A stretch of DNA of 64,000 nt from an uncultured Candidatus Saccharibacteria bacterium (GTDB lineage: Bacteria > Patescibacteriota > UBA1384 > XYA2-FULL-43-10 > 1-14-0-10-43-13). Positions 6,163 to 64,000 of the stretch are shown piece by piece. The DNA lies in NCBI GenBank assembly GCA_964529405.1, contig CAZGWE010000003.1:17192-81191 (forward strand), given 5' to 3'. How positions within the stretch are numbered: position 1 is the first letter of the stretch; the number at the start of each line of letters is the position of its first letter. The notes under the pieces are model-generated. The model did no database searches, was not told the origin of the DNA, and worked only from the letters and a program-made list of their open reading frames with translations. Made by a program: the position numbers and the translations under genes.

Positions 6163-7056
6163 TTGACAGCTAAAGGCCTTATCCGATTAAATGGTTCTAT
6201 GAACAAACTAGCCTTAGGCACGGTTCAATTTGGACTCGATTACGGCATCAACAACAAAGTCGGAAAAGTACCCGAGAGCGAGGTCTTTGCTATTTTGGAT
6301 TATGCCAAAAAAATTGGTATTAATACTTTGGATACTGCCTCGAGCTATGGCGAAAGCGAGAAAGTCCTTGGACAATACTTTGTCAAGAGAGGATCTGATA
6401 ATTTACAGATTGTCTCCAAATTCGCTGAAGCAGCGAATGTCTTATCTGACATTAAAACATCACTGCAAAACTTGAAGACAAACAGGCTTTACGCTTACCT
6501 GCTTCATCACTTTGAATCTCTGAAGCAACAACCCGACCTTTACAAAGAAATGGTTAAATTAAGAGAAGAAGGTTTAACGCAAAAGATTGGCTTCTCTCTC
6601 TATTATCCCCATGAACTACAATATTTACTGGATCGCTCCATCCCCTTTGATCTTGTTCAAGTGCCCTATAACATTTTCGATCAACGTTTCCTGCCCTACT
6701 TTGCCAAACTAAAAAAGGAAGGCAAAGAGATTCATGTCCGTTCAGCCTTTCTACAGGGATTAATTTTTAAAAATCCAAGCGATATACCCCCCTATCTGCA
6801 AGACATGAAGAAAAAACTTGAAAAACTACACCAACTTTCCTTGGAAAGTGAAATTCCTTTAGCAGCCATGGCTCTTAACTTCTGTACTAGCAACCCCTAT
6901 ATCGGCAAGGTAGTCATTGGCGTTGACAGCCTCAAGAATTTGCAGGATAATTTCTCTGATCTATCCCACCAGCAAGCCGTCGTCAACCTCATATCCGAAC
7001 TATTAGGACTTAGAGAAGATAATGAAGAACTAATTTTGCCAATCAACTGGAAATAG
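6163..7056 (+). CDS. aldo/keto reductase family oxidoreductase
   Basis: LALGTVQFGLDYG ... DTASSYGESE motifs of AKR superfamily; start uncertain (ATG 6163 or 6199). Confidence 0.7.
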   Translation: MTAKGLIRLNGSMNKLALGTVQFGLDYGINNKVGKVPESEVFAILDYAKKIGINTLDTASSYGESEKVLGQYFVKRGSDNLQIVSKFAEAANVLSDIKTSLQNLKTNRLYAYLLHHFESLKQQPDLYKEMVKLREEGLTQKIGFSLYYPHELQYLLDRSIPFDLVQVPYNIFDQRFLPYFAKLKKEGKEIHVRSAFLQGLIFKNPSDIPPYLQDMKKKLEKLHQLSLESEIPLAAMALNFCTSNPYIGKVVIGVDSLKNLQDNFSDLSHQQAVVNLISELLGLREDNEELILPINWK

Positions 7057-7072
7057 TCTTTGGATCTAAACT

Positions 7073-9157
7073 ATGGATATTATTGCAATTATTCAAGCCA
7101 GAGTCGGTTCGACCCGCTTACCTAATAAAGTTCTTTTACCATTGGGTGGCAAAACTGTACTCGAGCAGGTTGCGAGCCGAGTCGGCAGAAGCAAGCTTAT
7201 CAACAAGGTAATGGTCGCCACGACTACAAATAGTGACGATGACGCTATTGTTGAAATATTAGAAAAAGCTGGAATAGAGAGTTTCCGCGGCTCTGAAAAT
7301 GACCTTCTTGACCGCTATTACCAAGCAGCCAAACTTCATAAGCCAAAACATATAGTTAGAATCACGGCCGACTGTCCTCTAATTGATTCCGACGTCATTG
7401 ATGCAGTGATCAGTCTTCATCTTAAGGACAAAAATGATTATACTGCAAGCGCTTTCGTTGAAACCTTTCCGGATGGTCTTGATGTTGATGTAATGACCTT
7501 TAAGGCTCTTGAGGAAAGCTGGAAAAATGCCACCATTCCCTATCAAAGAGAGCACGTCACTCAATTCATCGCCAAAAATCCCCATCGGTTCAAAATAGGC
7601 AATCACTATCATACCGAGAACCTGTCTGATAAGCGATGGTGCATGGACGAACCCAATGATTATGCTTTCGTCGAGGCTGTTTACAGCGCGCTTGGGGCCG
7701 AGCGGGACTATTTCGGAATGGAAGATGTTTTGCGCTTCTTGTCGGCTAATCCAGATGTAGAAAAAATCAATCAAAACATCATCCGGAACGCCGGCATCTT
7801 AAAATCGACTGGCGCCGAGGCTGATTTGTTATTAGAAAGGAAAACGATGAGAACCGGACAAAATCTCTACAAGCGCGCCAAGGGCATTATTCCCGCCGGC
7901 ACGCAAATTCTTTCCAAGCGGCCGGAGCTGCACCTGCCAGGAGGCTGGCCCTCCTACTACAAGAAGGCCAAAGGCTGCGAAATCTGGGATATGGATGGCA
8001 AAAAATATGTTGATATGAGCTATATGGGTATTGGCGCCTGCGCTATCGGTTACGCCGACCCCGATATTGATAAAGCCGTTAAAAAAACTATCGACAACGG
8101 TATTGCCGCTACATTTAATTCACCAAAGGAACTCGAGCTGGCCGATATGCTTTTGGAGCTGCACCCATGGGCAGATATGGTTCGTTATGCTTGCGGCGGC
8201 GGCGAGATTATGGCTATTGCCATCAGAATTGCCCGGGCCAAATCCGGCAAGGACAAGGTGTTGTTTTGCGGCTATCACGGCTGGCACGATTGGTACTTAA
8301 GCTCCAACCTTGCTGACGATAAGGCGCTTGACGGCCACCTCTTACCCGGTCTGAAACCGCTCGGCGTACCACGCGCCTTAAAGGGTACGGCCATGCCATT
8401 TATGTACAACGATACCGAAGCTTTCTTGAAGTTAGCCAAGAAGCACAAAGGTGAAATCGGTGCTGTTGTCATTGAAGGTATGAGGAGTTATGAACCAGTA
8501 AAGGGTTTTTTGGAAACTATCAGAAAAGTAACCAAAGAGGAAAAAATTCCATTTATTATTGATGAAGTCTCATCAGGTTTTCGCTTGACCACCGGCGGCG
8601 CTCATATAAAGCTGGGCATTAAGCCAGATATGGCAGCCTTCGCTAAAGCTCTGGGTAACGGCTATCCAATTGCCGCCGTTATTGGCAAAAAAGAGGTCAT
8701 GGATGTGGTTGAGGACTGTTTTATTAGCTCAACCAACTGGTCAAATAATGTTGGCTTTGCTGCTGCTATCGCATCCTTGAAAAAGATGAAGGAGAAGCAC
8801 GTTGTCGACCATTTAATTAAGATGGGTAAAAAGGTGCAAGACGGCTGGGCAAAGATGGCTAAAAAAAACGGAGTTAATATTCACCTCTCCGGATTCTATG
8901 CCATTGGCCACTTTGATTTTGAATATGAAAATCCGCTAGTCTTAAAAACCCTCTTTACTCAAGAGATGTTAAAGCGAGGTTTCCTGGCAACCAACGCCTA
9001 CTACGCTTCGTATGCCCACAAAACCAAGCACATTAAAGCGTATTTAGAAAAGTGCGACGAGGTCTTTGCCATTGTTGCTGAAGCTATCAAATCAGGCAAG
9101 CCGGAAAGTTATTTAGAAGGGAATATCTGCCATGCCGGATTTAGAAGACTCACCTAG
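7073..9157 (+). CDS. bifunctional fusion: N-terminal acylneuraminate/CMP-sugar cytidylyltransferase-like (SpsF/PseF-like) domain + C-terminal class-III aminotransferase (glutamate-1-semialdehyde aminomutase-like)
   Basis: The N-terminus IIQARVGSTRLPNKVL ... ITADCPLID matches the CTP_transf_3 family. The C-terminal half (GWPSYYKKAKGCEIWDMDGKKYVDM ... GYHGWHDWY ... DEVSSGFR) matches HemL-like class-III PLP enzymes. Confidence 0.65.
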   Translation: MDIIAIIQARVGSTRLPNKVLLPLGGKTVLEQVASRVGRSKLINKVMVATTTNSDDDAIVEILEKAGIESFRGSENDLLDRYYQAAKLHKPKHIVRITADCPLIDSDVIDAVISLHLKDKNDYTASAFVETFPDGLDVDVMTFKALEESWKNATIPYQREHVTQFIAKNPHRFKIGNHYHTENLSDKRWCMDEPNDYAFVEAVYSALGAERDYFGMEDVLRFLSANPDVEKINQNIIRNAGILKSTGAEADLLLERKTMRTGQNLYKRAKGIIPAGTQILSKRPELHLPGGWPSYYKKAKGCEIWDMDGKKYVDMSYMGIGACAIGYADPDIDKAVKKTIDNGIAATFNSPKELELADMLLELHPWADMVRYACGGGEIMAIAIRIARAKSGKDKVLFCGYHGWHDWYLSSNLADDKALDGHLLPGLKPLGVPRALKGTAMPFMYNDTEAFLKLAKKHKGEIGAVVIEGMRSYEPVKGFLETIRKVTKEEKIPFIIDEVSSGFRLTTGGAHIKLGIKPDMAAFAKALGNGYPIAAVIGKKEVMDVVEDCFISSTNWSNNVGFAAAIASLKKMKEKHVVDHLIKMGKKVQDGWAKMAKKNGVNIHLSGFYAIGHFDFEYENPLVLKTLFTQEMLKRGFLATNAYYASYAHKTKHIKAYLEKCDEVFAIVAEAIKSGKPESYLEGNICHAGFRRLT

Positions 9158-9698
9158 CCAAATTAAAACCAAACTTAAGGCCGAATTTAAGACTGTTGGC
9201 ACTCGCCCAAAATCACCTCTCGAATCCTTTGACGGGATCGTTGTTCTGTCTGCCGAAGAGACAGATATCTCCGGCGAAAATAAGGAACGTCTTTTAGCCG
9301 GTCTTAACCTTATGGTCAAGATAAAAACGGGCGGCAATTTTATTTTCCTTGGCACCAAAATCCACAACGCCGGCGCAGAGAATTATATCTTGCAAAACCA
9401 CCCCGATATTGAGGCAAACTTTCCCGCTAAACGGAAAGAGGCCTCAACCAGAACGCAGATAAAGGACCTTTCAGCCTTTCTGCATAAAAAACCTCTCTCA
9501 AAGCTTTTGATAGTCTCGCAAGCCTATCACATACCGCGCATTGACCGTTACTGCCAAAGATATATGCCGGATCAATTATATGATGTCTCTCCGGTCGGCG
9601 ATATTAAATCATACGCCAAACAAGTTGAAGTCGAAATTAATAAGATCATCAAATACGCCGGCCAGGGGGACCTGGATCTTTTTCTAACGCACAATTAA
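9132..9698 (+). CDS. DUF218 (YdcF/SanA-like) domain protein
   Basis: 188 aa; IVVLSAEE ... SQAYHIPR resembles the DUF218 signature (xYHMxRA). Overlaps upstream gene by 26 nt. Confidence 0.35.
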   Translation: MPDLEDSPSQIKTKLKAEFKTVGTRPKSPLESFDGIVVLSAEETDISGENKERLLAGLNLMVKIKTGGNFIFLGTKIHNAGAENYILQNHPDIEANFPAKRKEASTRTQIKDLSAFLHKKPLSKLLIVSQAYHIPRIDRYCQRYMPDQLYDVSPVGDIKSYAKQVEVEINKIIKYAGQGDLDLFLTHN

Positions 9699-9713
9699 CT
9701 TGGAACGCAGCTT

Positions 9714-10628
9714 ATGGCAACAAAAAAACGCGGAACAAGGAGCGAACACAGAGGTCCGGTTATTGAAAATCATAAAGGGCATGAAATCATAGACTGCAAA
9801 GTGTGCAAATTCAAGCACGTCAATCCGATACCCACCGGCCAGGAGATCAATGATTTTTATGCCAGGTTCTACACCGACGAAAAGCCCAACTACTTCAAAG
9901 ATGCCGAGGAGGATCTGGAGTGGTGGCTGGCGGGATATAGGAACTATTACACTTTATTTGAAAAATATACCAAAGGTAGAAAGCTACTCGATATTGGTTC
10001 GGGGCCAGGCTACTTTCTAAAGTGCGGGGCTGATCGCGGCTGGGAGATTGTGGGCTTTGAACCTTCTAAACACGCTTACGATTATTCAACCAAGATGGGA
10101 CTCAAAGTCATCAATGATTATTTTAACATGGCTAAAGCCAAAGCGCTTGGTAAATTCGATGTTGTTTCATTAACCTTGGTTCTCGAACATCTGCCTAACC
10201 CTAAAAAATTGATCGAAGAAGCCAAGAGCATTTTAAACCCGGGGGGGTTACTTCTCATTCTATCGCCTAACGAATTTAACCCGCTTCAAAGGGCTGTAAT
10301 TAAGAGCAATAATTTAGAACCATGGTGGGTCTGCCCGCCGGAGCACATTAATTATTTTGATTTTCCATCTATCAAGAAATTAGTCAAATCCACCGGCCTT
10401 AAAATAGTAGATTCGCTGGCCACTTACCCCATGGAGCTCTTTCTGCTTAACGGCGAGATCTATATTAGCAACCGTGAGATAGGGCGAGGTTGCCATAAAA
10501 AACGAAAATCTTTTGAGATGAACCTCTACCAGCAAGACCCCGAGATCCTAAACAATCTCTACCGCAGCTTTGCCCGAAATAACATCGGCCGGGAATTTAT
10601 TATTATCGCCAAAAAAAATGAAAAATAA
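9714..10628 (+). CDS. class I SAM-dependent methyltransferase with N-terminal Cys-pair zinc-ribbon
   Basis: LLDIGSGPGYF (motif I), LEHLPNP, PGGLLLI motifs; CKVCKF Cys pair near N-terminus. Confidence 0.65.
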   Translation: MATKKRGTRSEHRGPVIENHKGHEIIDCKVCKFKHVNPIPTGQEINDFYARFYTDEKPNYFKDAEEDLEWWLAGYRNYYTLFEKYTKGRKLLDIGSGPGYFLKCGADRGWEIVGFEPSKHAYDYSTKMGLKVINDYFNMAKAKALGKFDVVSLTLVLEHLPNPKKLIEEAKSILNPGGLLLILSPNEFNPLQRAVIKSNNLEPWWVCPPEHINYFDFPSIKKLVKSTGLKIVDSLATYPMELFLLNGEIYISNREIGRGCHKKRKSFEMNLYQQDPEILNNLYRSFARNNIGREFIIIAKKNEK

Positions 10629-16645: not shown

Positions 16646-19531
16646 ATGATGCCTTTCAGAGCGGAAAGTATCAAGCTGATATTTCGAGGAGGGGTTTTAG
16701 GATTATGGAGTTACTCTTCGTTTCTTTTTTTTTATGTTATTCTAAATCTTAATTACGTCCTGGCTGCCCTGTCCGGCCTGGTTGTTTATTGGCTCTTTGA
16801 CCTCCTGCTGTCGCAGCACGAACAACATTCTATCCAAAAGATTACATCTAAATTACTTTTAATACCGGCGGGTCTCTTTGTTGTCTGGGGGCTGGTCGGT
16901 CGTCTTAGCTTCTCCCCTGTTTTTGCCAACGCTCTGGTTGTCCTGCTGTTTTTAGCGGGCTATTTTGTCGGACCTGTTTATTACGAAGCCAGAAAAAAGG
17001 AAATCGACTTTCTGTTCTATCGTTACCGCTTTGTCTTAAACTACTGTCTGATTGGTTTTGGCTCAATTGTTTTAGAGTTAATAATCGCTACCACCCTAAA
17101 CCGATTTCTTAATCTCAACGTGATGCTTGGCAGCGTCATCGGCTTTATCTTTGGCGTTCTCTTCAGCTACATCCTTAATTCAAGGTTGAACTTTCAGGTA
17201 CCTAAGAAAAAGAGCGTCAAAACCTTTAAAATGTTTGCTCTCATCTCTCTTTTCAGTTATTCGCTTAGCATAATCCTGCTGCAATTGATCAGCAGCGTTA
17301 TGGACTTTGAATATTTCTATCTTCGCTTTTTAATTGCCGGTGTCCTCTTTGCCATCGGCTATACTTTACATCGCCGCTACACTTTTACCGACATTAAGTA
17401 TGTTGGCGTTGCCCTTTACCTCGACCCAAAAGAGAGCACCGACGATGTCTGGAACAAGATCCAGGATTACCCCGACTTCATCCACATCGACTTGGTTGAC
17501 CAGACCTATAACCCCAAATTCACGCCGGAGAACATTGATGTCAGCAAAGGTTACGACATCAAGTCTAAGTGGTTCGGCATCAAAACCATGACGCACGTTA
17601 TGTCCAAGTTCCCCTCCAAGTGGATCTCTGAAATTGCCGGCTTCTCCGACGTTATTATTGTCCACTATGAAATCGAAGAGAGTCTGAATGAGGTTATTGA
17701 AAGCATCAAAAAACTGAATAAGAAGGTTGGATTATCGATTCTCTACTCGACCGATATTGAATTAATCCGGCCATATCTCAAAGAAATGGACGTGGTTCAG
17801 GTCTTAGGTATTGCCCAACCGGGCATGTCCGGCCAGTTCTTGCAAAAAACCGCTCTGGAGCGATTGGTTAAACTCAATGCGATCAAGAAAGATTACAGTT
17901 TCGAGATTTGTTTTGACGGCGGTATCAAGCGCGAAAATATTGACAGCATCACCGCTAAATACGTCGTCTCGGCTTCCTCAATTTTGAACGCCAACGATCC
18001 GGTCAACGCCATCTTTGACTTAAAAACCAGCTCCCGCTACTTCTCGCAACGGGCATCGCTTAAAGATTTCCTCTCCAAGCGGATTTTAAACATAGGCGAG
18101 AACGAGCCTTCCATTGCCTCGATCAACATTGTCGGCTCATTTTCCGAAAAAGATGACCTCTCCGGCATCAGCGATATCGATATCGTTATCATTGCTGACG
18201 AACTCAACAAGGAAAAGTACGCCGATATCGTCAACCAGTTTAACCTGCTCAAGGAACAGATCGAGACCGACTACAGCTTGAGAGCCAAGATTAATGACAC
18301 CTTTGGCCCGCTCAAGTTTGACGACCGGTACGACGTCGTTCTGCACCTCATGATTTATGACACCAGGGGCCATCTTGACCACTGTGTCAAAAGCCCTTTC
18401 ACCGTCCTCGACTGGGAGAGAAGCCGGATGTATGCCAAGAAACCGATGAAAGAGATTATTGCCACCTTAAAACCCCAGCCCAACCAGCTGATGAGCTCGC
18501 GAAGAAGTCTTGACAGCTACTTGCGGGATCTGCGGCAGGGCAACATTACCTACCGCCAATATTCATTTAACGGATCAGAAAAAACACTGCAAGAGATTGC
18601 CAAGACCAAGAGAATGGCCGGCAAAGACAAGGTTGAATACGCCTTTCATATTATGAAGTTTATGATTTTGAATTTTATGAAGATCTACTCCGGCCAAAAT
18701 ATGCGCTTCTCCGAGGAGGTGATACAAAGTTTCTTCGGTCTGACCGATATGAACCGTAAATATCTGTCGCTTTTTAATGAATTGCACCGCAGAAAGTTGA
18801 ACAAAAGGACGGAGATCAGCGAGGAGGAGATCTGGCAATTACAGCTCTTCCTGCTGGAGTTTAAGATGGTTTTCGAAAAGGTCTTCCATCTGATGGGCAA
18901 AAGCGTCATTCTGATGCGCCACGCCCAAACCGAGTTAAACAAGAAAAAGGTCTTTCTGGGCCAACGGCATGATCCGGATATTATCACCGAGCCGATTAAG
19001 GACAAGATTGCCTCACTGTCCTCGTCTTTATCCGATATCGATATTGTTTACTCCTCTCCAATGCGGCGGGCACTGGAAACGGCCCGGCTGGTTAACAAAC
19101 CGCTCAAGCGCGAGATGGTGGTCAACTACGACATCAATGAGATAGACTATGGCGATATCGACGGCCAAGAGTTTGCTTATCTATTTAAAAATTATCCCGA
19201 TATTGTTAAAGCTTGGGAGAGGGGCGAGGATCCCAAGTTCCCCAACGGCGAAAATTACGCCGACCTTCTGGAGCGCCTGGACCGGTTCTGGCAATCGCTT
19301 CAAGAAAGAAATGACCGATGGTGCGGCAAGATCCTGGTTGTAACCCACAACGTCATCATGAGGGCAGTCGCCGGCCGGTCGCTGGGCATACCGCAGAAAT
19401 ATTGGCATAAAATCAACATTGACCATTTAGAAACCTTCGAACTTTTTATGGCCGGGAACGGTATTATACATTTGAATCTTGAGGGTGACCAGATCGCTAA
19501 AATATATTATAATATTTATACCAATGATTGA
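16646..19531 (+). CDS. four-part fusion: GtrA-like membrane N-domain + ribulose-phosphate-3-epimerase-like TIM barrel + Pol-beta-type nucleotidyltransferase + histidine phosphatase (PGM-family)
   Basis: N-terminal polytopic region; the RPE-like segment has IHIDLVDQTYNPKFT, QPGMSGQF and CFDGGIK; the NTase segment has GSFSEKDDLSGISDIDIVII; the histidine-phosphatase segment has ILMRHAQTELN (RHG motif) plus a conserved C-terminal His region. The exact start is uncertain. Confidence 0.5.
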   Translation: MMPFRAESIKLIFRGGVLGLWSYSSFLFFYVILNLNYVLAALSGLVVYWLFDLLLSQHEQHSIQKITSKLLLIPAGLFVVWGLVGRLSFSPVFANALVVLLFLAGYFVGPVYYEARKKEIDFLFYRYRFVLNYCLIGFGSIVLELIIATTLNRFLNLNVMLGSVIGFIFGVLFSYILNSRLNFQVPKKKSVKTFKMFALISLFSYSLSIILLQLISSVMDFEYFYLRFLIAGVLFAIGYTLHRRYTFTDIKYVGVALYLDPKESTDDVWNKIQDYPDFIHIDLVDQTYNPKFTPENIDVSKGYDIKSKWFGIKTMTHVMSKFPSKWISEIAGFSDVIIVHYEIEESLNEVIESIKKLNKKVGLSILYSTDIELIRPYLKEMDVVQVLGIAQPGMSGQFLQKTALERLVKLNAIKKDYSFEICFDGGIKRENIDSITAKYVVSASSILNANDPVNAIFDLKTSSRYFSQRASLKDFLSKRILNIGENEPSIASINIVGSFSEKDDLSGISDIDIVIIADELNKEKYADIVNQFNLLKEQIETDYSLRAKINDTFGPLKFDDRYDVVLHLMIYDTRGHLDHCVKSPFTVLDWERSRMYAKKPMKEIIATLKPQPNQLMSSRRSLDSYLRDLRQGNITYRQYSFNGSEKTLQEIAKTKRMAGKDKVEYAFHIMKFMILNFMKIYSGQNMRFSEEVIQSFFGLTDMNRKYLSLFNELHRRKLNKRTEISEEEIWQLQLFLLEFKMVFEKVFHLMGKSVILMRHAQTELNKKKVFLGQRHDPDIITEPIKDKIASLSSSLSDIDIVYSSPMRRALETARLVNKPLKREMVVNYDINEIDYGDIDGQEFAYLFKNYPDIVKAWERGEDPKFPNGENYADLLERLDRFWQSLQERNDRWCGKILVVTHNVIMRAVAGRSLGIPQKYWHKINIDHLETFELFMAGNGIIHLNLEGDQIAKIYYNIYTND

Positions 19532-20135
19532 GTATTTTATCGCCCTGACTCCCGAGCAACAGCTCTACAAAAAGATTGAATCGGTTAAGTCTTATGTTTT
19601 CGAGAACTTTGGCGACCAAGCTTATTTGCTTGACCCGCCCCACTCCACCCTCTGTGTCGGCACGACCGGTAATATCAAAGAAACTAACCGAGAGCTAGAA
19701 AAATTCACCGAGACAAACAAAAGGGTCGGTTTTGGAATAATCGATTGGCTCATCTTCGCCAATGACAAAGTGACAAAATCGTCATCACTGGTTTTGAGGT
19801 TTGATGAAAATTGCATCAAATCCCTTAGGCAGGTTCAAGCCGGAGTTCTGGATGCCGTCGCACCGTCGAGAAGCAAGGCGTGCGCAAAGAGGTATAAGAG
19901 CGTTAAATTTTCGCCAGTCGAGAAGCAAAATTTAATAAGCTTCGGCTTTCCCTATGCCGGCGAGATCTGGATCCCTCACATCGGCATCTGCGCTATGTCC
20001 GATGAACACATCGCCGATGTCAAGACAAAATTTGATATCAAAGACTTTAGCCAGCCAAGCTGTTTCGACCGGATTTCTTTATATAAACTTGAGAGCGAAA
20101 AACCAATATTAATTAATTCGTTTGATCTACTATGA
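19524..20135 (+). CDS. hypothetical protein, weak 2H-phosphoesterase-like features
   Basis: PHSTL and PHIGI resemble degenerate HxT/S motifs. The longer track ORF overlaps the upstream gene, so the start is taken at the internal MIEYF. Confidence 0.25.
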   Translation: MIEYFIALTPEQQLYKKIESVKSYVFENFGDQAYLLDPPHSTLCVGTTGNIKETNRELEKFTETNKRVGFGIIDWLIFANDKVTKSSSLVLRFDENCIKSLRQVQAGVLDAVAPSRSKACAKRYKSVKFSPVEKQNLISFGFPYAGEIWIPHIGICAMSDEHIADVKTKFDIKDFSQPSCFDRISLYKLESEKPILINSFDLL

Positions 20136-20836
20136 AACATCAATTGTTAAAAAAAATGGTCTGGCAAGCTAATCGGGCGCTATCTGGTTCCGGTTTGATT
20201 ATTTTAACCTGGGGCAATGCCAGCGCTTACGATCGTGAAGCGGGCGTAATTGCTATCAAACCAAGCGGTGTTTCTTACGCCGAGATGAAAGTTGACGATA
20301 TCGTCGTACTTGATATCGAGGGTAAAATTATTGATGGTAATAAAAAACCGAGCGTCGATACGCCAACGCATTTAGAAATTTACCGCAGCTTTCCAGCTAT
20401 TAACGGTATCGTCCACACCCACTCACTCCACGCCACCGCCTTCGCCCAGGCCGGCACACCGATTGAATGCCTCGGCACAACACACGCCGACCACTTTTAC
20501 GGCCGTATTCCGGTGGCCAGAAAGTTATTGAAAAGAGAAATGGACGCCTATGAAAAAAACACCGGCAAGGTCATCGTTGAATTATTCCGCCAAGAGCAAC
20601 TCGATCCGCTTCATGTTCCGGGCTGTCTGGTGGCCGGCCACGGCGTCTTTACCTGGGGCAAGAGTGCTGATGACGCAGTCAATAATGGGATTGTTGCCGA
20701 GTTTCTGGCTAAGGCGAATCTGGCAACTTGCACTATTAACAACAAGACAGTGAAACTGCCTAAGCACATTCTGGAAACCCATTTTTTAAGAAAACATGGT
20801 AAAAATAGCTATTATGGACAAGGAGAAAAGAAATGA
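20132..20836 (+). CDS. class II aldolase/adducin-family protein, L-ribulose-5-phosphate 4-epimerase (AraD)-like
   Basis: 234 aa; IKPSGV, VHTHS, GHGVFTWG motifs of AraD/FucA family; 4-nt overlaps on both sides (operon). Confidence 0.7.
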   Translation: MKHQLLKKMVWQANRALSGSGLIILTWGNASAYDREAGVIAIKPSGVSYAEMKVDDIVVLDIEGKIIDGNKKPSVDTPTHLEIYRSFPAINGIVHTHSLHATAFAQAGTPIECLGTTHADHFYGRIPVARKLLKREMDAYEKNTGKVIVELFRQEQLDPLHVPGCLVAGHGVFTWGKSADDAVNNGIVAEFLAKANLATCTINNKTVKLPKHILETHFLRKHGKNSYYGQGEKK

Positions 20837-21594
20837 TTAATTTGATTCCAATGGCCGGACTTGGCAACCGCTTTGCCGCCGCCGGCTATACCACCCCAAA
20901 AGCCTTAATTCCGATTTCCGGCAAACCGATGATTTTACGCGTAACTGAAATGATGCCCAAAGCCGATAAGTGGGTCTTTGTTTTGCGAAAGGAGCATGTC
21001 GACAAGTACCAAGTTGACGAGGCGATCAAGAAAGAGGTGCCCAACAGTGAATTTATTATTATCGATTACAACACCGAGGGCCAGCTTTCAACCTGCTTGT
21101 TAGCCGAAAAGTATATCAACAACGATGAGGAGCTGTTTATCGGCGCCTGCGACCACGGCTTTCTCTGGTCGGAGAAAAAGTTTAATTCGCTGCGCAAAAA
21201 ATATGACGTGGTACCCTGGGTTTTTACCAAACAGAAAACCCTCTCCGATAACCCGACCGCCTGGGGCTGGGTCAAAACCGATAAAGCGGACAACGTCTTA
21301 GGTGTCTCGGTCAAAACGCCTATCAGCGATACTCCCTTTGACGATTACGCTATCACCGCCGCTTTTTATTATCGCACCGGCAAGATTTTCCTTGATATCG
21401 CCAATAAAGTTATAGCCGATGATACCAGAATTAAAGGTGAATTTTATGCTGACACAACTATTGATTACGCCCCAAAGATGAATTACAAGACCAAAGCCTT
21501 TGTGGTTGATAAATATTTGAGTTGGGGCACCCCACGAGACTACGAAGAGTTCCTCTTCTGGCAAGAAGTATTTGGAAAAGTAAAGTTCATGTAA
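20833..21594 (+). CDS. sugar-phosphate nucleotidyltransferase (MobA/LicC-like NTP_transferase)
   Basis: The N-terminus LIPMAGLGNRFAAAGYTTPKALIPISGKPMI is a G-rich nucleotide-binding loop typical of sugar nucleotidyltransferases. Confidence 0.6.
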   Translation: MINLIPMAGLGNRFAAAGYTTPKALIPISGKPMILRVTEMMPKADKWVFVLRKEHVDKYQVDEAIKKEVPNSEFIIIDYNTEGQLSTCLLAEKYINNDEELFIGACDHGFLWSEKKFNSLRKKYDVVPWVFTKQKTLSDNPTAWGWVKTDKADNVLGVSVKTPISDTPFDDYAITAAFYYRTGKIFLDIANKVIADDTRIKGEFYADTTIDYAPKMNYKTKAFVVDKYLSWGTPRDYEEFLFWQEVFGKVKFM

Positions 21595-21648
21595 TCTTAT
21601 CTATCCCTCCCCTAGATTAGGGGAGGCTAGGTGAGGTAGAAGAGCCCT

Positions 21649-22059
21649 ATGAAACAGCTTTTTGTTAAGTATCGCCACTTTATCGTCTTCTCCCTGATCG
21701 GGGCATTTTGCGTTGTGATTGATTTTGTCTTTTACCTTCTCTTCCTAAAAATTTTTGACATCGTTGTTCTCTCTAAAATCTGCTCCTCAATCATCAGCGT
21801 CAGCGTAAACTACCTTTTAAACTCCCGCTTCAACTTTGACAATAAGCAAAAAGTCAGCACCAAATTCTATACTCAGTATTTAATTGTTTATGCTTTCCTG
21901 ATCGGCCTCAATGCCCTCTTTAATTCGGTTTTTCTTCAAACTACCGGCAGCATTAACCTCTCCTTCTGGCTAGCCGCCATAATCGCCGCTTTCACCAATT
22001 ACGCCGCCATCAAGATCTTCTTCAAGGTCATCAATAGATCATATCGCTTGCCAATCTGA
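21649..22059 (+). CDS. GtrA-family membrane protein
   Basis: 136 aa, 4 hydrophobic helices, YLLNSRFNF motif. Confidence 0.6.
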   Translation: MKQLFVKYRHFIVFSLIGAFCVVIDFVFYLLFLKIFDIVVLSKICSSIISVSVNYLLNSRFNFDNKQKVSTKFYTQYLIVYAFLIGLNALFNSVFLQTTGSINLSFWLAAIIAAFTNYAAIKIFFKVINRSYRLPI

Positions 22060-22243
22060 ATATATTTAGTCATTTGAGCAAAGTTCTAACCCGTTCGACA
22101 GACTCGGGACAACCTCCGCAAAGAATCCCTCGGCAAACTCAGGATAAGTTCTGTAGAGGGATTTTTTAGTAACCCAACAAAAAAGACGGCAACCCTAGCG
22201 GTCACCGCCCAACACACCCTCCCACTCTGGCTACTGAGGAACC

Positions 22244-23263
22244 TCAGTAGCTGATCGACAACAGGTCGCCGATCTCTGCGCGGAAGCGCAAAGCCGCGCC
22301 GACGAGCTTGCTCTCAATCTCACGGCTAGCCGTAAACACGGTGCCAGCTCGATGCCACATCTCTTTGGGCGAAACCGCGGCCGCGTTAGCCGTGAGCTGC
22401 TCGCCGAAGATATCAACCTCGAGTCGCACATTGCCGCCGGTCTGATCGAGCGCCCGGGCAATGGCTTGTGTGGGAGCAGTGTCCCACACCTTCCAGTCCG
22501 GTTGGCAGTTGAACGAGATATTCATCGGCTCAAGCGCCGTGAATGCCTCTAGCTTACCAACCGGCTCCACGAGAGAACGGAAGACTTGCAGCGCCTGCAA
22601 GCCCGCTCCACCTGTCGGTACCTGTACAGCGTCGATACCAAGCTCATACAGGAGTTCGGTGAAACGCTCATCGAAAAGGGACTGCGGGTAGTAGATCCGT
22701 CGGTTATACCGGATCTGTCCTTTCTGGCGGTCCCTGATCGGCCGCACACCCATGATGCGGACGCTACCTTCCTCTTCGGTGGCAAAGCACACCTGCCGCC
22801 CCTCGCTGATGAGAGCGAACTGGCCCAGCACGTGATATATCATACCCGCCACCGGAAGGAACGGCTCGTTAGGCGATTCCCGGCAAAGCTTGGTGATGAG
22901 AACGGTCGGCGATATGACCTGATCCGTTCTCACCGACTTCGCCAGGTCGCCACTCCCGTCGAGCGGATCGACCATGTAGATCTCCGTCGCCATCCGGCGA
23001 TCGGGCGAGTCCTGCTCCTCGGTGAAAGAGCCGGGGTAGCGCCCCGCGAGGCCTTCCACACCCGGAATGCCGCCATAGAGGAGGGCATGACTTGCGCTTA
23101 CGTCCACCTCTGTAACGACTTCGCCGAAGTTGGCTCCGGCAGTAACGAGCTTGATGCCCGTCTTCTTGCGCATCGCGGGCAGGATCACCGCCGCTACGAC
23201 GCGCGCGACCTGGGGGAACACCCATCTCTGCATCTCGTCAGTGTGAGATATACCTGCTAGCAT
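22244..23263 (-). CDS. inositol-monophosphatase/FBPase/CysQ-family (FIG superfamily) phosphatase
   Basis: MVDPLDGSGD (DPxDG metal site) and WDTAPTQAIA (WDxA) motifs; gene lies in a ~65% GC segment. Confidence 0.65.
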   Translation of the reverse strand: MLAGISHTDEMQRWVFPQVARVVAAVILPAMRKKTGIKLVTAGANFGEVVTEVDVSASHALLYGGIPGVEGLAGRYPGSFTEEQDSPDRRMATEIYMVDPLDGSGDLAKSVRTDQVISPTVLITKLCRESPNEPFLPVAGMIYHVLGQFALISEGRQVCFATEEEGSVRIMGVRPIRDRQKGQIRYNRRIYYPQSLFDERFTELLYELGIDAVQVPTGGAGLQALQVFRSLVEPVGKLEAFTALEPMNISFNCQPDWKVWDTAPTQAIARALDQTGGNVRLEVDIFGEQLTANAAAVSPKEMWHRAGTVFTASREIESKLVGAALRFRAEIGDLLSISY

Positions 23264-23420
23264 CTACTTTCCCTTCCACCGGCACGTTTGCCAGTCCTGC
23301 GTATTATACATTTATAGAATAATATGTCAACATCCCTTTCTTGATATACACAGTTAATTATGGTATGGTGGTGAGCTTAGCTAGACTATCAGACAGATAA
23401 GCTAAGCAGAGGGGGACAAC

Positions 23421-23921
23421 ATGCCGAAAACAATACAAATCCAGGACGTCACCGAGGAGAAGTTGAGATCCGGCAAACTGAGAAGACTGCTGCCGGAGAT
23501 CTACGATCTCAAGCGCGTAGTCGAGAACAACGTCTGGCATAAGAACCAGACGGTCTTCGACCACACCGTCGGAGTCTTCCAGGGCATGAGGGAGGTCTTG
23601 GACTTTCGCCTCAACGAAACTTTAAAGGCGCGGCTAGCCAGTACCCAGGTCGGCACGTTGTCTCGGTCTGAAGCCCTGCTTGCCGCCGCCCTGCTCCACG
23701 ACATTGCCAAACCGGTGACCTGGAAACGCGATGTCACCGGCATCACTTCGTGTCCCTGGCACGAGGAAATCGGTAGTACCATGGTACCCGCTTTCGCCGA
23801 TCGGCTCTGTCTCGATCTGATGGATGTGCAACACATCCAAAGCCTAATCAAGGGCCATGGCTTCGCCTATGGTACCTTCACCCTTATCTCCGACTTGCTT
23901 GACCTTTTAAAGGATTTTTGA
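23421..23921 (+). CDS. HD-domain phosphohydrolase
   Basis: H..H ... LLHDIAKP motif; ~55% GC. Confidence 0.55.
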   Translation: MPKTIQIQDVTEEKLRSGKLRRLLPEIYDLKRVVENNVWHKNQTVFDHTVGVFQGMREVLDFRLNETLKARLASTQVGTLSRSEALLAAALLHDIAKPVTWKRDVTGITSCPWHEEIGSTMVPAFADRLCLDLMDVQHIQSLIKGHGFAYGTFTLISDLLDLLKDF

Positions 23922-23933
23922 GAGAGTACCACT

Positions 23934-24920
23934 ATGATGTGGTTTAGCTTCATCGCACTCCTACTAATTGCTTCGTTTGCCTACTCTGCCATAGGCAAGA
24001 TTTTGGTCATTAAAAAAATCTTTACCTCAATAATGGTTGGCTTGAGCTTTTCGGGCTTGCTGGTCGGCACGCTGGCCAATTTTAACGCCGGCATCATCAG
24101 GCCGGTGGCTGTTACCGTCATTACTATCGGGCTAATTCTGGCTATAAGAAACATCAGAAAATCAGACAGCGCCAAAATTGATCCCTCTCTCTACGCTTTT
24201 CTGGCTGCGGTCGGCCTGACATTATTTATTCTCAATTATCCAACAAGAGTTTTTTTAGATAACAACACTTTGCTTTACAATATTCATTACTCCTACTTCT
24301 CCAATCTCTCCTCGGAAATGTTGACCGCTAACTATTTTAGCCGGTTAAGAGTGTCTGAGTTCGTACCTTACGAGTGGAGCATCTACCACTTTTTCAACTC
24401 CGGTGTGCAGGCATCAATCTCCGGCCTCATTCCCCGCCCCGGCCTCTTTTCTTATTTTTTCGCCCAGCTCTTCGTCGTTATTTTTATAATTTTAGCCCTG
24501 TTAGAAAACCTCTTCGATCTATTTGGTTTTAACGCAAGAACAGCGGCCGCCTCGGTCATCTGGTTAGCTTTTGGCTTTACCTTTTTTTCGAACGCCTTCG
24601 CCTGGAACCTGGCCACTACCGGCCCCCTCTCAGTCTTTGCGATGATCTTGCTCCTTATCTCGATTTACAAAAACAATACAAAAGAGTTCATTCTGTTTTC
24701 CTTAATACTGGGTGCCAGCGCCTTCCGCCTGCTGCCGCTAGCCATTGTTGCGTTTATCCTACTCTTTCTCTCCACTCTCCTGCCTGATTACAAGAAACCA
24801 AAAACAATATCGGCCACCTTTAAAAAACTTTTGCCCGATTACCCGACGCTGCTCTTCTATCTGCTCTTTCTAGCCTACAATGTCTCAACCATTATTTTTG
24901 GCTCTCTGCCGGCAAGGTAA
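23934..24920 (+). CDS. polytopic membrane protein, unknown function
   Basis: 328 aa, ~9 hydrophobic helices. Confidence 0.35.
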   Translation: MMWFSFIALLLIASFAYSAIGKILVIKKIFTSIMVGLSFSGLLVGTLANFNAGIIRPVAVTVITIGLILAIRNIRKSDSAKIDPSLYAFLAAVGLTLFILNYPTRVFLDNNTLLYNIHYSYFSNLSSEMLTANYFSRLRVSEFVPYEWSIYHFFNSGVQASISGLIPRPGLFSYFFAQLFVVIFIILALLENLFDLFGFNARTAAASVIWLAFGFTFFSNAFAWNLATTGPLSVFAMILLLISIYKNNTKEFILFSLILGASAFRLLPLAIVAFILLFLSTLLPDYKKPKTISATFKKLLPDYPTLLFYLLFLAYNVSTIIFGSLPAR

Positions 24921-24943
24921 GCTACCAAAAGGAACAAGACGCT

Positions 24944-25846
24944 ATGATCGACTTCCAATACAGCTTTCAAGATGATTGGTCATCGGGATTGGCCTTTTAC
25001 CGGACCATTGGTATCTTTATTCAGCGCTTTCTCCATCGGGGCGTCTTTTTGGAGGCCAACTTTAACAACTCAATGCATAAACCGATTGAAAATATACTCT
25101 CTAGCTGGTTTTTATTTATCTCGGCCATCTTTGCCTTCATCTTTCTTATCGATTGCCTGATCTGCTACTATAATAAAGCCGGACTAAAAAAAACCATCAA
25201 CATGGCTTCCCTCTTTCTGGTTGGCTTGTTAGGCTCTGCCGGCCTGGCCCGGATATTTCCCAAGATCGCAGTAGCCAAGCTGGTCCTGGTCACCGCACCC
25301 TATCTGCTCTTGAGCCTCGGCCTGCTTTATTTGGTCCAAAATCAGATAGCACCGAAATTTTTTTCCAATAAAGATGGCGCCGCCCGCCCATTGGTTAATC
25401 CCTTTATCTTCCTGATTCTGATGGTTTTGACAGGTTTTGCCATGCAGTTTCTAAGGTTGGGTCCGGCCGTTAAAATACCGGCGCTTTTTATACCCTACGA
25501 CATTCTGCTTTGGGGCATACTCGGTCTTTTTCTCTTTGTTCACTCGCACATTAAGATCAAACTTTTATACCAAACCCTCTTTGTTGTCATGCTGGTCTTT
25601 GTTTATGAAGTTCCTCTAAATTCGCTTTTAACGATCAAATCGCCGGCCCCGATTGATATTTCCCCGCTCCTAGCGTCTAACCTTAATCGTTCCGACTACC
25701 TTGACAGCCGGAGCGGCCTGTGCAAATTTGATTACGACGATCAGACTAAAACCGTTGTTTATGCGGCCGTTCTGGGTTGCGACCTCAAATACTCGGCGGC
25801 CAGGAAAGAATCTTTAAGCATTAACTTTTTGGCAAAAGACAAGTGA
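24944..25846 (+). CDS. polytopic membrane protein, unknown function
   Basis: 300 aa; hydrophobic helices; begins 23 nt after previous membrane ORF. Confidence 0.35.
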   Translation: MIDFQYSFQDDWSSGLAFYRTIGIFIQRFLHRGVFLEANFNNSMHKPIENILSSWFLFISAIFAFIFLIDCLICYYNKAGLKKTINMASLFLVGLLGSAGLARIFPKIAVAKLVLVTAPYLLLSLGLLYLVQNQIAPKFFSNKDGAARPLVNPFIFLILMVLTGFAMQFLRLGPAVKIPALFIPYDILLWGILGLFLFVHSHIKIKLLYQTLFVVMLVFVYEVPLNSLLTIKSPAPIDISPLLASNLNRSDYLDSRSGLCKFDYDDQTKTVVYAAVLGCDLKYSAARKESLSINFLAKDK

Positions 25847-26580
25847 ATATGAAAAAATACTCCATCATCGTTCCCTGTTACAATGAAGCCAAAAACATTC
25901 CCCTGATTTTAAAACGTTTCCAAACAGCTATCGGCAAACGCTCGGATACCGAACTTATTCTGGTCAACAATGGTTCTGTTGACGATTCAGACAAGGTCAT
26001 CTCTGCCAACCTGCCGCGCTTCACCTTTGCCAAATCGATCAAGGTGACCAAAAATATCGGCTACGGCCACGGTGTCCTGACCGGGCTCAAAGAGGCCAAT
26101 GGGCAGTTCCTTGGCTGGACCCATGCCGATATGCAAACCGACCCGGTTGATGTTTTGAAAGCGTTTGCAATTTTAGAGGGAGCCGACAAACCAGATAATA
26201 TTTTTATTAAAGGCAGAAGGGTCGGACGTCCGGTATTTGACCGCTTGTTTAGCCTTGGAATGGGTGTATACGCTTCATTAAAACTTAGAGTCAGATTTTA
26301 TGAGATCAACGCCCAACCGACCATCTTCTCAAAAAGATTTTTTAACTCCTGGCGCAACCCGCCCTCCGACTTTTCTCTCGACCTCTTTGCCTATTGGCAA
26401 GCCCAAAAAAACAATTTGCGAATTATCCGCTTTCCCGTCCTCTTTCCGGAAAGAAAGTTTGGCCAGTCGTCCTGGAACACCTCCTGGAAAAAACGAATAG
26501 CAATGATAAAAAGGTCAGCGGATTTTATCAAAAAGTTAAAAGAAAGGACAAAAAGTGAACTACATCGCCCACCGCGTTAA
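25843..26580 (+). CDS. GT2-family glycosyltransferase (polyprenyl-phosphate sugar synthase, DPM1/ArnC-like)
   Basis: YSIIVPCYNEAKNI, LVNNGSVDDS, GYGHGVLTG motifs. Confidence 0.7.
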   Translation: MNMKKYSIIVPCYNEAKNIPLILKRFQTAIGKRSDTELILVNNGSVDDSDKVISANLPRFTFAKSIKVTKNIGYGHGVLTGLKEANGQFLGWTHADMQTDPVDVLKAFAILEGADKPDNIFIKGRRVGRPVFDRLFSLGMGVYASLKLRVRFYEINAQPTIFSKRFFNSWRNPPSDFSLDLFAYWQAQKNNLRIIRFPVLFPERKFGQSSWNTSWKKRIAMIKRSADFIKKLKERTKSELHRPPR

Positions 26581-27148
26581 CACGATTGAAGAGTTAAAGA
26601 AAGTGCCCGGAGAGTATGGAGTCGAGATTGACCTGCGCGACCGCGACGACGGTAAAATCATTATGGTCCATGACCCCTTCACTCCGGGAGAGGATTTCGA
26701 GGAGTATCTTAAGCACTATCACCACGGTACCATGATTTTGAACATCAAGAGCGAGCGGATCGAGCACAAGGTTTTAGAACTTATCAAGAAAGCCGATGTT
26801 AAAGACTATTTCTTTTTGGACTCTTCATTTCCAATGATCTACCTCCTCTCCAACCAGGGTGAAAAAAATTTAGCCGTACGTTTTTCAGAATACGAAGGCT
26901 TGGATACTATATTAGCAGTCAAAGATCGAGTTAAGTGGATTTGGGTTGATTGCTTTACCAAACTACCCCTTGATGATAAAACGGTCAAAGCGCTCAAGGG
27001 AACCGGTCTGAAACTCTGCCTGGTCTCTCCGGAACTCCAGGGACGACCGGAAGATATCGAACCATACAAAAAGCAACTGAAAGACCTTGGCATCGCCTTT
27101 GACGCCATTTGCACTAAGATCTATAACATCGAAAAGTGGCAAGCCTGA
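26555..27148 (+). CDS. glycerophosphodiester phosphodiesterase-like (GDPD family) protein
   Basis: IAHRVN ... VEIDLRDRDDGKIIMVHD matches GDPD N-terminal signature. Confidence 0.5.
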   Translation: MNYIAHRVNTIEELKKVPGEYGVEIDLRDRDDGKIIMVHDPFTPGEDFEEYLKHYHHGTMILNIKSERIEHKVLELIKKADVKDYFFLDSSFPMIYLLSNQGEKNLAVRFSEYEGLDTILAVKDRVKWIWVDCFTKLPLDDKTVKALKGTGLKLCLVSPELQGRPEDIEPYKKQLKDLGIAFDAICTKIYNIEKWQA

Positions 27149-56897: not shown

Positions 56898-56942
56898 CTT
56901 GGTATATTTTTGGTACAACTATTGCAGGGAGAACAAACGCCA

Positions 56943-60108: not shown

Positions 60109-61143
60109 ATGCTTAAAAATCTGTCACTTGAAAACTTTCGCAGCCACCAACATTTTGAACTTGAATTGGAACCAAACACGGTTCTAGTAGGCAGGAATGG
60201 CGCCGGCAAAAGCAATATCTTAGAATCAATTGTCCTCTTGTCGCACTGCCGGTCTTACCGCGAAGACCGCAAGGCCAACCTGATTAACAACGGTTCCGAA
60301 TTTGCCCGGGTAACCGGAGACGACCTTGAGCTTTTCCTGTCCAAAAATCCCCAATTCTATATGAAAGCGAGAAAGGGCGGCGTCTTTAAACGCTTGACGG
60401 AATTCGTGGGCATTTTGCCGTCGGTTGTCTTCTCGCCGGAAACTCTGGCCATTATCACCGGTTCGCCCAAAGAGAGAAGGAGGCTTCTTGATATTCTGAT
60501 CAGTCAAACCAGCCGGGAATATCTTAGGGCGCTGGTGGAATACGAAAAAATCAGGCGCCAGCGCAACAGCTTGCTTAAAGCAATCAGGGAGAAGCGCGGC
60601 GCTGTTACGGAGCTTGGTTACTGGAACGGCCAGCTTGTGGAATCAGGCGGCAAAATCATCATGGAGCGGGAAAAAGCCGTTGCTTTTATTAATAATTCCC
60701 TGCCTGAATTTTATCAAAAAATTGCCGGGGACGAATCCAGCCGGTTGAAGCTGGTTTATTTAAAGAGCAGCGATAATCTGGAAAAAGATCTGGAAAGAAT
60801 CGTTACCAGGGAGATCTGCGAAGAGAGGACGCTGATCGGTCCGCACAAAGACGATTTGCGTTTTGATTTGAATGGCTTTAATATGCAAAACTTTGCTTCC
60901 CGGGGTGAAATCAAGTCGGCTGTCCTGGCCCTTAAACTTTCGGAGGTTGGTTATCTCGAAGTGGCCGGAGCTGGCGTCAAACCTATCCTCTTAGTTGACG
61001 ATGTCTTTTCCGAGTTTGATCCTGTTCGCCGCGGACATCTGGGCGATTTGATCTTAAATTATCAGACTTTAATCACCACCGCAGAGAAGGAGCAGCTGTC
61101 AAAGGAGCTGCTCAAAAAGGCGAAGGTGGTGGAACTTAAATAA
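60109..61143 (+). CDS. recF: DNA replication and repair protein RecF
   Basis: LENFRSHQ ... GRNGAGKSNILESI Walker A, LLVDDVFSEFD Walker B/signature. Confidence 0.9.
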   Translation: MLKNLSLENFRSHQHFELELEPNTVLVGRNGAGKSNILESIVLLSHCRSYREDRKANLINNGSEFARVTGDDLELFLSKNPQFYMKARKGGVFKRLTEFVGILPSVVFSPETLAIITGSPKERRRLLDILISQTSREYLRALVEYEKIRRQRNSLLKAIREKRGAVTELGYWNGQLVESGGKIIMEREKAVAFINNSLPEFYQKIAGDESSRLKLVYLKSSDNLEKDLERIVTREICEERTLIGPHKDDLRFDLNGFNMQNFASRGEIKSAVLALKLSEVGYLEVAGAGVKPILLVDDVFSEFDPVRRGHLGDLILNYQTLITTAEKEQLSKELLKKAKVVELK

Positions 61144-61174
61144 CTTGGGCTGCTTACGTTGCTCGGAGGTCATT

Positions 61175-63996: not shown

Positions 63997-64000
63997 AGCA

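Follow-up and report, generated by a model that had tools for sequence, protein, structure and literature searches.

The closest described relatives of the protein considered here are the phosphatases of the FIG (FBPase/IMPase/CysQ) superfamily, namely IMPase, CysQ/Hal2/SAL1, inositol polyphosphate 1-phosphatase, FBPase and SBPase. The pathways closest to its genetic surroundings are nucleotide-heptose synthesis, which runs in the order kinase, GmhB bisphosphate phosphatase and nucleotidylyltransferase, and the GtrA/GtrB/GtrC and mycobacterial decaprenyl-phospho-arabinose routes, both of which dephosphorylate a pentose-phosphate intermediate, the mycobacterial phosphatase of that step not being a FIG enzyme. 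We describe here a phosphatase gene that lies, together with an HD-domain open reading frame (ORF), in a GC-rich island within a glycan gene cluster of an uncultured Candidatus Saccharibacteria bacterium; the window, as we call the whole stretch of DNA analysed, comprises 64,000 nt (positions 17,192 to 81,191 of contig CAZGWE010000003.1, assembly GCA_964529405.1). At 339 aa the encoded protein is longer than IMPase (~250–270 aa), and its gene context, unlike that of the FIG phosphatases just named, is a glycan cluster and not inositol, sulfur or gluconeogenic metabolism. The likeness to the GmhB route is one of gene order, as the phosphatase gene of this family is found just before a nucleotidylyltransferase gene, of partners, as kinase domains of the phosphoribulokinase (PRK) type occur in two variant clusters (L001 and L013), and of chemistry, as the fold neighbours of the protein act on bisphosphates; however, GmhB belongs to the HAD family and the window phosphatase to FIG, and the sugar here is likely a pentose or pentulose. 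With the GtrA/GtrB/GtrC loci and the mycobacterial route the window cluster shares a GtrA protein, a DPM1-like GT2 transferase and polytopic membrane proteins, although its 328-aa and 300-aa proteins, which are candidate GT-C enzymes at most, have no Pfam match. As a piece of DNA, the segment resembles genomic islands and gene displacements in its deviant GC content, GC content at third codon positions (GC3), codon usage and oligonucleotide usage, in its sharp edges, in carrying its own signals and in its broken gene order, but it is tiny (1.7 kb) beside typical genomic islands and lacks the integrase, tRNA target, direct repeats and mobile-element genes seen in these.

The island is probably bacterial chromosomal DNA gained laterally from a higher-GC organism that carried a similar cluster, with the foreign copy of the phosphatase gene displacing the native one. 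Horizontal acquisition from a high-GC donor had already been proposed in an earlier reading made from the sequence only, and the grounds for it are now GC3, codon and tetranucleotide usage, amino-acid skew, sharp intergenic edges, a promoter and terminator of the island's own, and broken synteny. The presence in the window of DnaA (56910–58343) and of a PilB/GspE-type ATPase (53036–54700) identifies it as bacterial chromosomal DNA near the replication origin. The island and its junctions are made up as follows.

22060–22186, no strand: left junction zone, of mixed composition (35–55% GC)
22184–22210, minus strand: intrinsic-terminator-like hairpin 3' of the phosphatase gene, from a terminator scan; 11 pairs, 6 of them G-C, then TTTTTTGTTGG
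22230–22251, minus strand: perfect 10-bp inverted repeat at the phosphatase stop, GCTACTGAGG-AA-CCTCAGTAGC; arms 22230–22239 and 22242–22251
22244–23263, minus strand: phosphatase gene, core of the island; 339 aa, 60.4% GC, GC3 0.726
23264–23420, no strand: divergent promoter region, part of the island; ~40% GC (42–45% in 200-nt windows), change points at 23302 and 23441
23303–23330, minus strand: predicted sigma-70 promoter facing the phosphatase gene; TTGACA-16 nt-TATAAT, 12/12 consensus positions
23341–23369, plus strand: promoter-like site directed toward the HD ORF and the native genes downstream; TTGATA-17 nt-TATGGT with TG extension, 9/12, a consensus match only
23421–23921, plus strand: HD-domain ORF of the CCA-adding-enzyme/GlnD type; 166 aa, GC3 0.70, GC1 0.56, GC2 0.37
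23884–23933, no strand: right junction zone; 40-nt windows drop to 35–38% GC within the final 13 codons of the HD-domain ORF

The unusual rise in GC is real and well beyond chance: positions ~22187–23884 are at 57–61% GC against ~44% elsewhere in the window, where the highest 1-kb bin outside the island is at most 52.7%. In 200-nt windows the content is 36–45% at 21700–22100, then 55–64% over ~22150–23300, 53–60% at 23450–23850 and 40–47% past 23900, the flanks as a whole lying at 36–47%; the AT-rich promoter region inside the island is bounded by the two change points given above. Since the maximum-likelihood change points fall at 22187 on the left (2-log-unit support 22172–22200) and at 23884 on the right (support 23764–23915), the island measures about 1.70 kb, so that the sequence-only reading was right about the rise and somewhat generous about its extent, which it had given as 22080–23930 and 1.85 kb. 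That reading had also called for GC, codon-usage and tetranucleotide profiles, and the segment deviates on each of them. GC3 is raised in the phosphatase gene (z = 4.1) and in the HD ORF (0.701, z = 3.6) relative to the 47 other ORFs of the window (0.506 ± 0.054), and the tetranucleotide distance of the segment is extreme (z = 7.5) when set against 234 non-overlapping 1.85-kb windows. In synonymous codon usage the phosphatase gene is the poorest native fit among 49 ORFs (z = −2.9), the deviation of the HD ORF being weak (z = −0.8). In amino-acid composition the phosphatase has an excess of Gly/Ala/Arg/Pro (z = 2.3) and a shortage of Phe/Tyr/Met/Ile/Asn/Lys (z = −2.5), a skew that suggests a prolonged stay in a GC-rich genome; the HD ORF, at 54.3% GC, encodes a protein depleted in the second group of residues (z = −2.3) with no excess of the first (z = −0.3). 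Overlapping spurious ORFs of the kind pointed out earlier are indeed present, for example at 22586–23260 (plus strand), 22869–23225 (minus) and 23501–23851 (minus).

Judged by its composition and anatomy, the island is a self-contained expression unit. The predicted promoter facing the phosphatase gene is the single perfect match to TTGACA-N16-TATAAT in the 64 kb, where 0.07 would be expected by chance, and the gene has a ribosome-binding site of the AAGGGA type. At its other end the terminator-like stem and T-run, read from 22210 to 22184, coincide with the left compositional edge. The inverted repeat overlaps the phosphatase stop codon (22244–22246) and may be a second 3'-end stem; the hairpin had been reported before as overlapping the stop, which holds, and at 22228–22249, which is 2 nt too far to the left. 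Both the terminator hairpin and the stop-codon hairpin appear in the RNA fold of 22150–22270 on the minus strand (minimum free energy −45.5 kcal/mol, z = −2.1). An RNA element in the intergenic regions of the island was ruled out, as Rfam gave none at E ≤ 1. The left junction zone contains no ORF (six-frame translation, with stops in all frames), no repeat and no Rfam match, and on the right the stop codon of the HD ORF (23919–23921) lies 12 nt ahead of a native membrane-protein gene.

What the composition suggests is matched by the arrangement of the genes. We compared the window with 13 other distinct loci of the phosphatase family, from metagenome-assembled genomes (MAGs) and unlabelled metagenome contigs. 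A homologue of the NTP_transf_3 sugar-phosphate nucleotidylyltransferase of the window lies within 6 kb of the phosphatase-family gene in all 13, and for this reason the phosphatase is not to be seen as a random passenger; the same recurrence lends substance to the earlier suggestion that it serves the neighbouring nucleotide-sugar pathway. The phosphatase gene is immediately upstream of NTP_transf_3, on the same strand, in 9 of the 13 loci. The clusters most like that of the window have the orders 961aa-Aldolase_II-phosphatase-NTP_transf_3 (L018) and 961aa-LigT-phosphatase-NTP_transf_3 (L015). In the window, the Aldolase_II gene runs into NTP_transf_3, its stop overlapping the start of the latter, at the site where related clusters have the phosphatase gene; the canonical slot is therefore empty. 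The sole phosphatase gene is the GC-rich copy, which lies 650 bp downstream of NTP_transf_3, beyond the GtrA gene and inverted, and tblastn revealed no second copy or remnant in the 64 kb. An empty native slot and a foreign, inverted copy as the only one would therefore point to displacement by a foreign homologue, and the event looks like the replacement of a cluster-native gene and not the addition of a function. The segment thus combines discrete boundaries with a canonical phosphatase-NTP_transf_3 tandem that is broken, and it interrupts a run of same-strand genes.

In the course of events that we envisage, a fragment from a higher-GC organism would have integrated between the GtrA gene and the membrane-protein genes, bringing with it the phosphatase gene and its terminator, the divergent AT-rich promoter region and an HD-domain gene represented by its 5' part. 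The foreign phosphatase copy would have been gained and the native one lost, and the operon genes downstream of the split would now be transcribed from the plus-strand promoter predicted in the island. The transfer event as such is ordinary; its interest lies in the probable replacement of a cluster-native gene, in a type of cluster present in both a bacterium of the candidate phyla radiation (CPR) and a DPANN archaeon, and in a rare FIG clade that has gone unannotated and has a clear partner enzyme. That the transfer is recent is judged solely from a GC3 that has not drifted toward that of the host.

Composition of the kind that a plausible donor would have does exist within the family, whose high-GC members include L009 (62.5% GC, GC3 0.84) and L012 and L021 (62% GC). 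In a neighbour-joining tree the window protein clusters with P0002 to P0005, three of which, those for which DNA was available, are at 48–62.5% GC. A high-GC segment present in all relatives, which the sequence-only reading had named as the observation that would speak against transfer, was not what we saw, as the family is at host composition except in L014. There (ENA ERZ27293400 k141_759127, 8001–8993) the family gene is at 58% GC on a contig of 35–43% GC, with sharp edges, an abrupt rise in GC at the start codon and a GC3 of 0.64–0.65 against 0.29–0.41 in its neighbours (0.64 against 0.36, z = 10); it stands outside the canonical tandem and is divergent from two NTP_transf_3 genes, and an identical sequence, L019 (JGI Ga0066639_10002203), comes from a different archive. 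As the L014 protein is only 38% identical to the window phosphatase, it represents a separate transfer event. Two independent copies in GC islands suggest that the step is indispensable yet can be complemented across lineages. The notion that the family always forms a GC island was ruled out, since by GC3 just the window and L014/L019 stand out among the 10 loci tested.

Two other accounts of the composition have to be set against lateral gain. If the gene pair were native and vertically inherited, its high GC would reflect protein composition or local selection, and it is true that family genes always exceed their flanks somewhat in GC, with a margin of 0.7 to 9 points that persists where their GC3 is host-like, and that both GC1 and GC2 of the phosphatase gene are the maxima of the window. 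Yet the excess is greatest at synonymous third positions (0.73 against 0.51), and in 8 of 10 loci tested the GC3 of the family gene is within 2 standard deviations of that of its neighbours, or below it, so that a high GC3 is no family property; moreover, the HD ORF, which is unrelated, also has a high GC3, and the phosphatase gene sits away from its canonical position and in the opposite orientation. We therefore regard vertical inheritance as improbable. The remaining account, which had been offered as an alternative in the sequence-only reading, is that of an assembly chimera, a GC-rich segment from another organism in the sample that was joined in by the assembler, and it gains some colour from the metagenomic origin of the contig and from the abruptness of the jump in composition. 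Its standing could be examined with Logan assemblies, which are made per run, are based on unitigs and are independent of the deposited assembly. An exact look-up of contigs for the 339-aa protein had none on record, and the junctions were found through the HD and GtrA neighbours. The left junction is spanned by L007 (run SRR4343428; window 19832–22487) and L008 (run SRR4343430; window 20945–22487), both of which carry the GtrA gene and continue into the island, and the right junction by L002 (window 23059–26404) and L003 (window 23065–26404), all four with 0–1 mismatches to the window.

Because contigs from two separate runs pass both junctions unbroken, a chimera is very unlikely, the least credible of the explanations considered here. 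A false join would pass through a branching node in the de Bruijn graph, where such contigs normally stop, and here they continue across both junctions; a chimera would moreover require two such joins 1.7 kb apart, with the same native cluster regained on both sides, and would have to have inserted a gene of exactly the family expected for such a cluster. Against the suspicion that arises from the contigs of both runs breaking off within the phosphatase gene (positions 22487 and 23059/23065), which leaves its central 571 nt without independent support, it can be said that coincident contig ends also occur at 26404, in native sequence, that GC3 is evenly high along the gene, and that the protein aligns end to end with its homologues and gives a fold model with a pLDDT of 93. 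A sharp GC island within a MAG need not be caused by contamination. The Logan contigs of the two runs end alike, or nearly so, at all of these positions, which hints at branch points shared by the graphs, for example from strain variants in the community, and not at random loss of coverage; a graph branch specific to the island was ruled out as their cause by the end at 26404.

Several observations nevertheless weigh against lateral gain and displacement as the preferred account. The closest homologue of the phosphatase is 47–49% identical and no donor was identified. Nothing in the way of an integrase, a plasmid match, a phage match or a significant PHROG hit marks a transfer mechanism; there is no tRNA target nearby, the nearest tRNAs being at 42616 and 54710, and flanking direct repeats are at chance level only, with an 11-nt pair at 22159/23912. 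A search for close relatives of the host yielded none (the JGI metagenomes contain no relative of the 328-aa neighbour, and in the protein collection the neighbouring genes occur as singletons), and consequently no empty site is shown. The family by its nature accounts for some of the GC excess, as its gene lies 1–9 points above its flanks even when its GC3 is host-like. Finally, positions 22488–23058, inside the phosphatase gene, are not covered by the Logan contigs, so that for the middle of the gene the original assembly is the only source. A reading of the segment as a mobile element or defence locus was ruled out, there being no plasmid, phage, PHROG or PADLOC match of note.

From its modelled fold, the 339-aa protein belongs to a rare divergent clade of the FIG superfamily. 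Its motifs, DPLDGSGD (residues 99–106) and WDTAP (residues 260–264), with the DPLDGS and WDTA cores at 99 and 260, are as the sequence-only reading had given them, as are the divergent orientation of the two genes and the LLHDIAKP motif of the HD ORF; its designation as IMPase family is sound at the level of the superfamily and does not extend to the Pfam family, as Inositol_P (PF00459) scores 15.3 bits against a gathering cut-off of 27 and covers residues 18–104 only. No NCBIfam model matches the protein, and sequence-only searches of the PDB returned weak FIG matches only (E = 0.005 to 0.09), with nothing of significance from a single-sequence search. Four relatives of 43–47% identity were returned by a word-indexed search of 5.8 billion proteins, and an exhaustive profile search of 1.84 billion cluster representatives gave 63 at E ≤ 0.001, of which 31 at E ≤ 1e-30, the weak tail (P0040 to P0063) passing Pfam Inositol_P. 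An AlphaFold model from a 29-sequence alignment (pLDDT 92.9, pTM 0.93) has the two-domain alpha/beta sandwich fold of the sugar-phosphatase superfamily, at 11–19% identity to solved structures; it supersedes an earlier, poor model from 5 sequences (pLDDT 57), with which Foldseek had pointed the same way. Among 29 family members the invariant columns are D54, F80, E82, E83, D99, D102, D106, R189, A220, K258, W260 and D261, which take in a Glu-Glu pair (E82, E83), the DPxDG loop and a WD motif (W260, D261), and these three, going by IMPase, we take to be the binders of the catalytic metals. Since the metal-binding residues are all retained, the protein is predicted to be, with very high probability, an active metal-dependent phosphatase, more precisely an Mg2+-dependent phosphomonoesterase. 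Of the PROSITE-style patterns, neither of IMPase signatures 1 and 2 nor the FBPase signature is present in the window phosphatase, and over the 29 members IMP_1 is found in 1/29, IMP_2 in 0/29 and FBPase in 0/29. The protein thus stands for a distinct and probably active clade within a known superfamily. With ~60 representatives among 1.84 billion proteins, the family is unstudied and escapes curated models while its catalytic site is intact.

The second gene of the island is a real coding sequence, or was so until recently. Pfam HD (PF01966) matches it at 26.2 bits against a cut-off of 22, over profile positions 2–85 of 116; the C-terminal part of the domain is unrecognisable, and the compositional change point at 23884 falls among the 20 residues that follow H146. 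Its relationship to class II CCA-adding enzymes/poly(A) polymerases and to GlnD lies in the HD region and the H...HD...H...H motifs (H48, H93-D94, H114 and H146, with LLHDIAKP at residues 91–98): it gives partial matches to the HD region of GlnD (E = 9e-11) and to positions 234–342 of 466 of an actinobacterial CCA model, and it aligns to residues 224–362 of the Aquifex A-adding enzyme 3WFP (E = 4e-4). It starts at the domain boundary of CCA-type enzymes but, at 166 aa, has neither the nucleotidyltransferase head nor the tRNA_NucTran2_2 tail of the class II enzymes; upstream there is just the 157-nt intergenic region, in which no N-terminal Pol-beta head is encoded. The weak relatives P0070 and P0071 run on into a tRNA_NucTran2_2 domain, which the ORF does not have.

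With the right compositional boundary in its last 40 nt (37 nt before the stop), the HD ORF is probably a passenger that was transferred along with the phosphatase gene and may have been truncated; on balance we favour, without great assurance, one that was cut at the right junction. It speaks against this that truncation is argued from a partial Pfam match and from a change point with wide support (23764–23915). The competing idea of a two-gene functional module, with an intact, untruncated small phosphohydrolase as partner of the phosphatase, could appeal to a strong ribosome-binding site (GAGGGGGA, 6 nt ahead of the ATG), to the promoter-like site and the coding-type GC periodicity, to the presence of H48, H93-D94, H114 and H146 and the start at a domain boundary, and to a cluster rich in phosphoesterases (His_Phos_1 and LigT-like proteins). 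It is nonetheless unlikely, as an HD gene is paired with the phosphatase family in none of the other recovered loci, the ORF has no relative at E ≤ 0.001 among 5.8 billion proteins, the Pfam match breaks off well before the end of the profile, the tail domain of its weak relatives is absent, and the GC change point lies within its closing codons. The terminator scan found no terminator between the HD ORF and the native gene at 23934.

The native cluster into which the island is set comprises the following genes.

16646–19531, strand not stated: 961-aa fusion of GtrA, ribulose-phosphate 3-epimerase, Pol-beta-type nucleotidyltransferase and histidine phosphatase
19479–20135, strand not stated: LigT-like 218-aa protein with a weak DUF1045 match only (E = 0.08)
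20132–20836, strand not stated: class II aldolase/epimerase (Aldolase_II, Pfam)
20833–21594, plus strand: NTP_transf_3 sugar-phosphate nucleotidylyltransferase (Pfam), 253 aa, native; GC3 0.563, native-like
21649–22059, plus strand: GtrA-family membrane protein (Pfam GtrA_DPMS_TM, E = 3.6e-12), last native gene before the island; 40.6% GC
23934–24920, plus strand: 328-aa polytopic membrane protein, first native gene past the island; 45% GC
23934–25846, strand not stated: two polytopic membrane proteins (the 328-aa protein and one of 300 aa), no Pfam match in either
25843–26580, strand not stated: DPM1-like GT2 transferase (Pfam)
26555–27148, strand not stated: conserved 197-aa protein that recurs in related loci

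It is tempting to speculate about the reaction that links these genes. The phosphatase might act on the 1,5-bisphosphate of a pentose or pentulose and yield the 1-phosphate, a proposal suggested by fold neighbours and gene context to which we would give slightly less than even weight. Its grounds are the substrates of the fold neighbours, the nearest of which remove one phosphate from doubly phosphorylated substrates, together with the 3-epimerase and the class II aldolase-family epimerase, cluster neighbours that handle pentulose phosphates, the PRK domains in the variant clusters L001 and L013, and a 2H phosphoesterase that is often found beside the phosphatase family. 2H phosphoesterases typically open cyclic phosphates. 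The Ribul_P_3_epim and Aldolase_II neighbours make a pentose or pentulose the probable sugar. In the scheme proposed, a pentose with two phosphates, for instance ribose- or ribulose-1,5-bisphosphate, would lose the surplus one through the phosphatase and become a sugar-1-phosphate; NTP_transf_3 would activate this product, the GT2 enzyme would pass it to polyprenyl phosphate and GtrA would flip it, with GT2, GtrA and the membrane proteins exporting the sugar to a surface acceptor. It tells against this scheme that both the substrate and the pathway step are drawn from fold neighbours and gene context alone. The conserved phosphatase-transferase pair does suggest a route to an activated pentose, and a coupling of phosphatase and nucleotidylyltransferase in the glycan clusters of ultra-small bacteria and archaea would be of interest as the surface chemistry of these organisms is almost unknown. 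A broader picture, of the family as a so far undescribed phosphatase of sugar bisphosphates that supplies its own dedicated nucleotidylyltransferase in an uncharacterised pentose-nucleotide path for GtrA-type surface glycosylation, present in CPR (Parcubacteria) and DPANN (Nanoarchaeota) and repeatedly swapped across GC-diverse lineages, with the window and L014 as fresh events, is tentative and, taken as a whole, rather doubtful.

Much of the native cluster recurs in the comparison loci, which include a Candidatus Parcubacteria MAG (L004; JBDKJD010000010) and a Nanoarchaeota MAG (L005; JAUYDD010000067). Besides the GT2 transferase and the 197-aa protein, both the 961-aa fusion and the LigT-like protein are found in L005 and L015, and the fusion occurs in L018 as well. 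The variant clusters L001 and L013 have, together with a canonical IMPase, one protein of the Aldolase_II type and one with a PRK domain, and homologues of these two L001 proteins are present in L004; in L001 an MptA_B-like match (weak, precomputed) and the PRK domain fall on one protein. The 218-aa protein of the window is 30% identical to its L005 homologue, and the LigT-like proteins of L001 (4806–5432) and L005 (7470–8102) match LigT_PEase and/or 2_5_RNA_ligase2 and, weakly, DUF1045, a domain linked to phosphonate operons; together these proteins hint at a pentose intermediate with a cyclic phosphate. A literature search on the gene cluster found nothing, and to our knowledge the architecture of the 961-aa fusion has not been described. 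In the Nanoarchaeota MAG the fusion is divided between two ORFs and retains 37% identity.

In the same archaeal locus, just the C-terminal 135–148 residues of the phosphatase family are encoded (9989–10435), directly upstream of NTP_transf_3, in what may be a decayed copy, with a B12-binding radical SAM gene (8303–9730) just ahead of it. The Parcubacteria locus has a 238-aa ORF (6372–7088) at 53% GC, with a GC3 of 0.70, on a contig of ~33–36% GC; it lies ~1.2 kb upstream of the phosphatase-family gene, with one NTP_transf_3 gene between them, has no Pfam or PHROG match and may be a further foreign insert in a homologous cluster. Elsewhere in the window, a scan of 10 large ORFs against NCBIfam left 6 of them unmatched at E ≤ 1e-5. 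An 851-aa ORF (61441–63996, minus strand), likewise without an NCBIfam match, lies in the part of the window (61000–64000) that shows the second-largest tetranucleotide deviation, at 50–53% GC.

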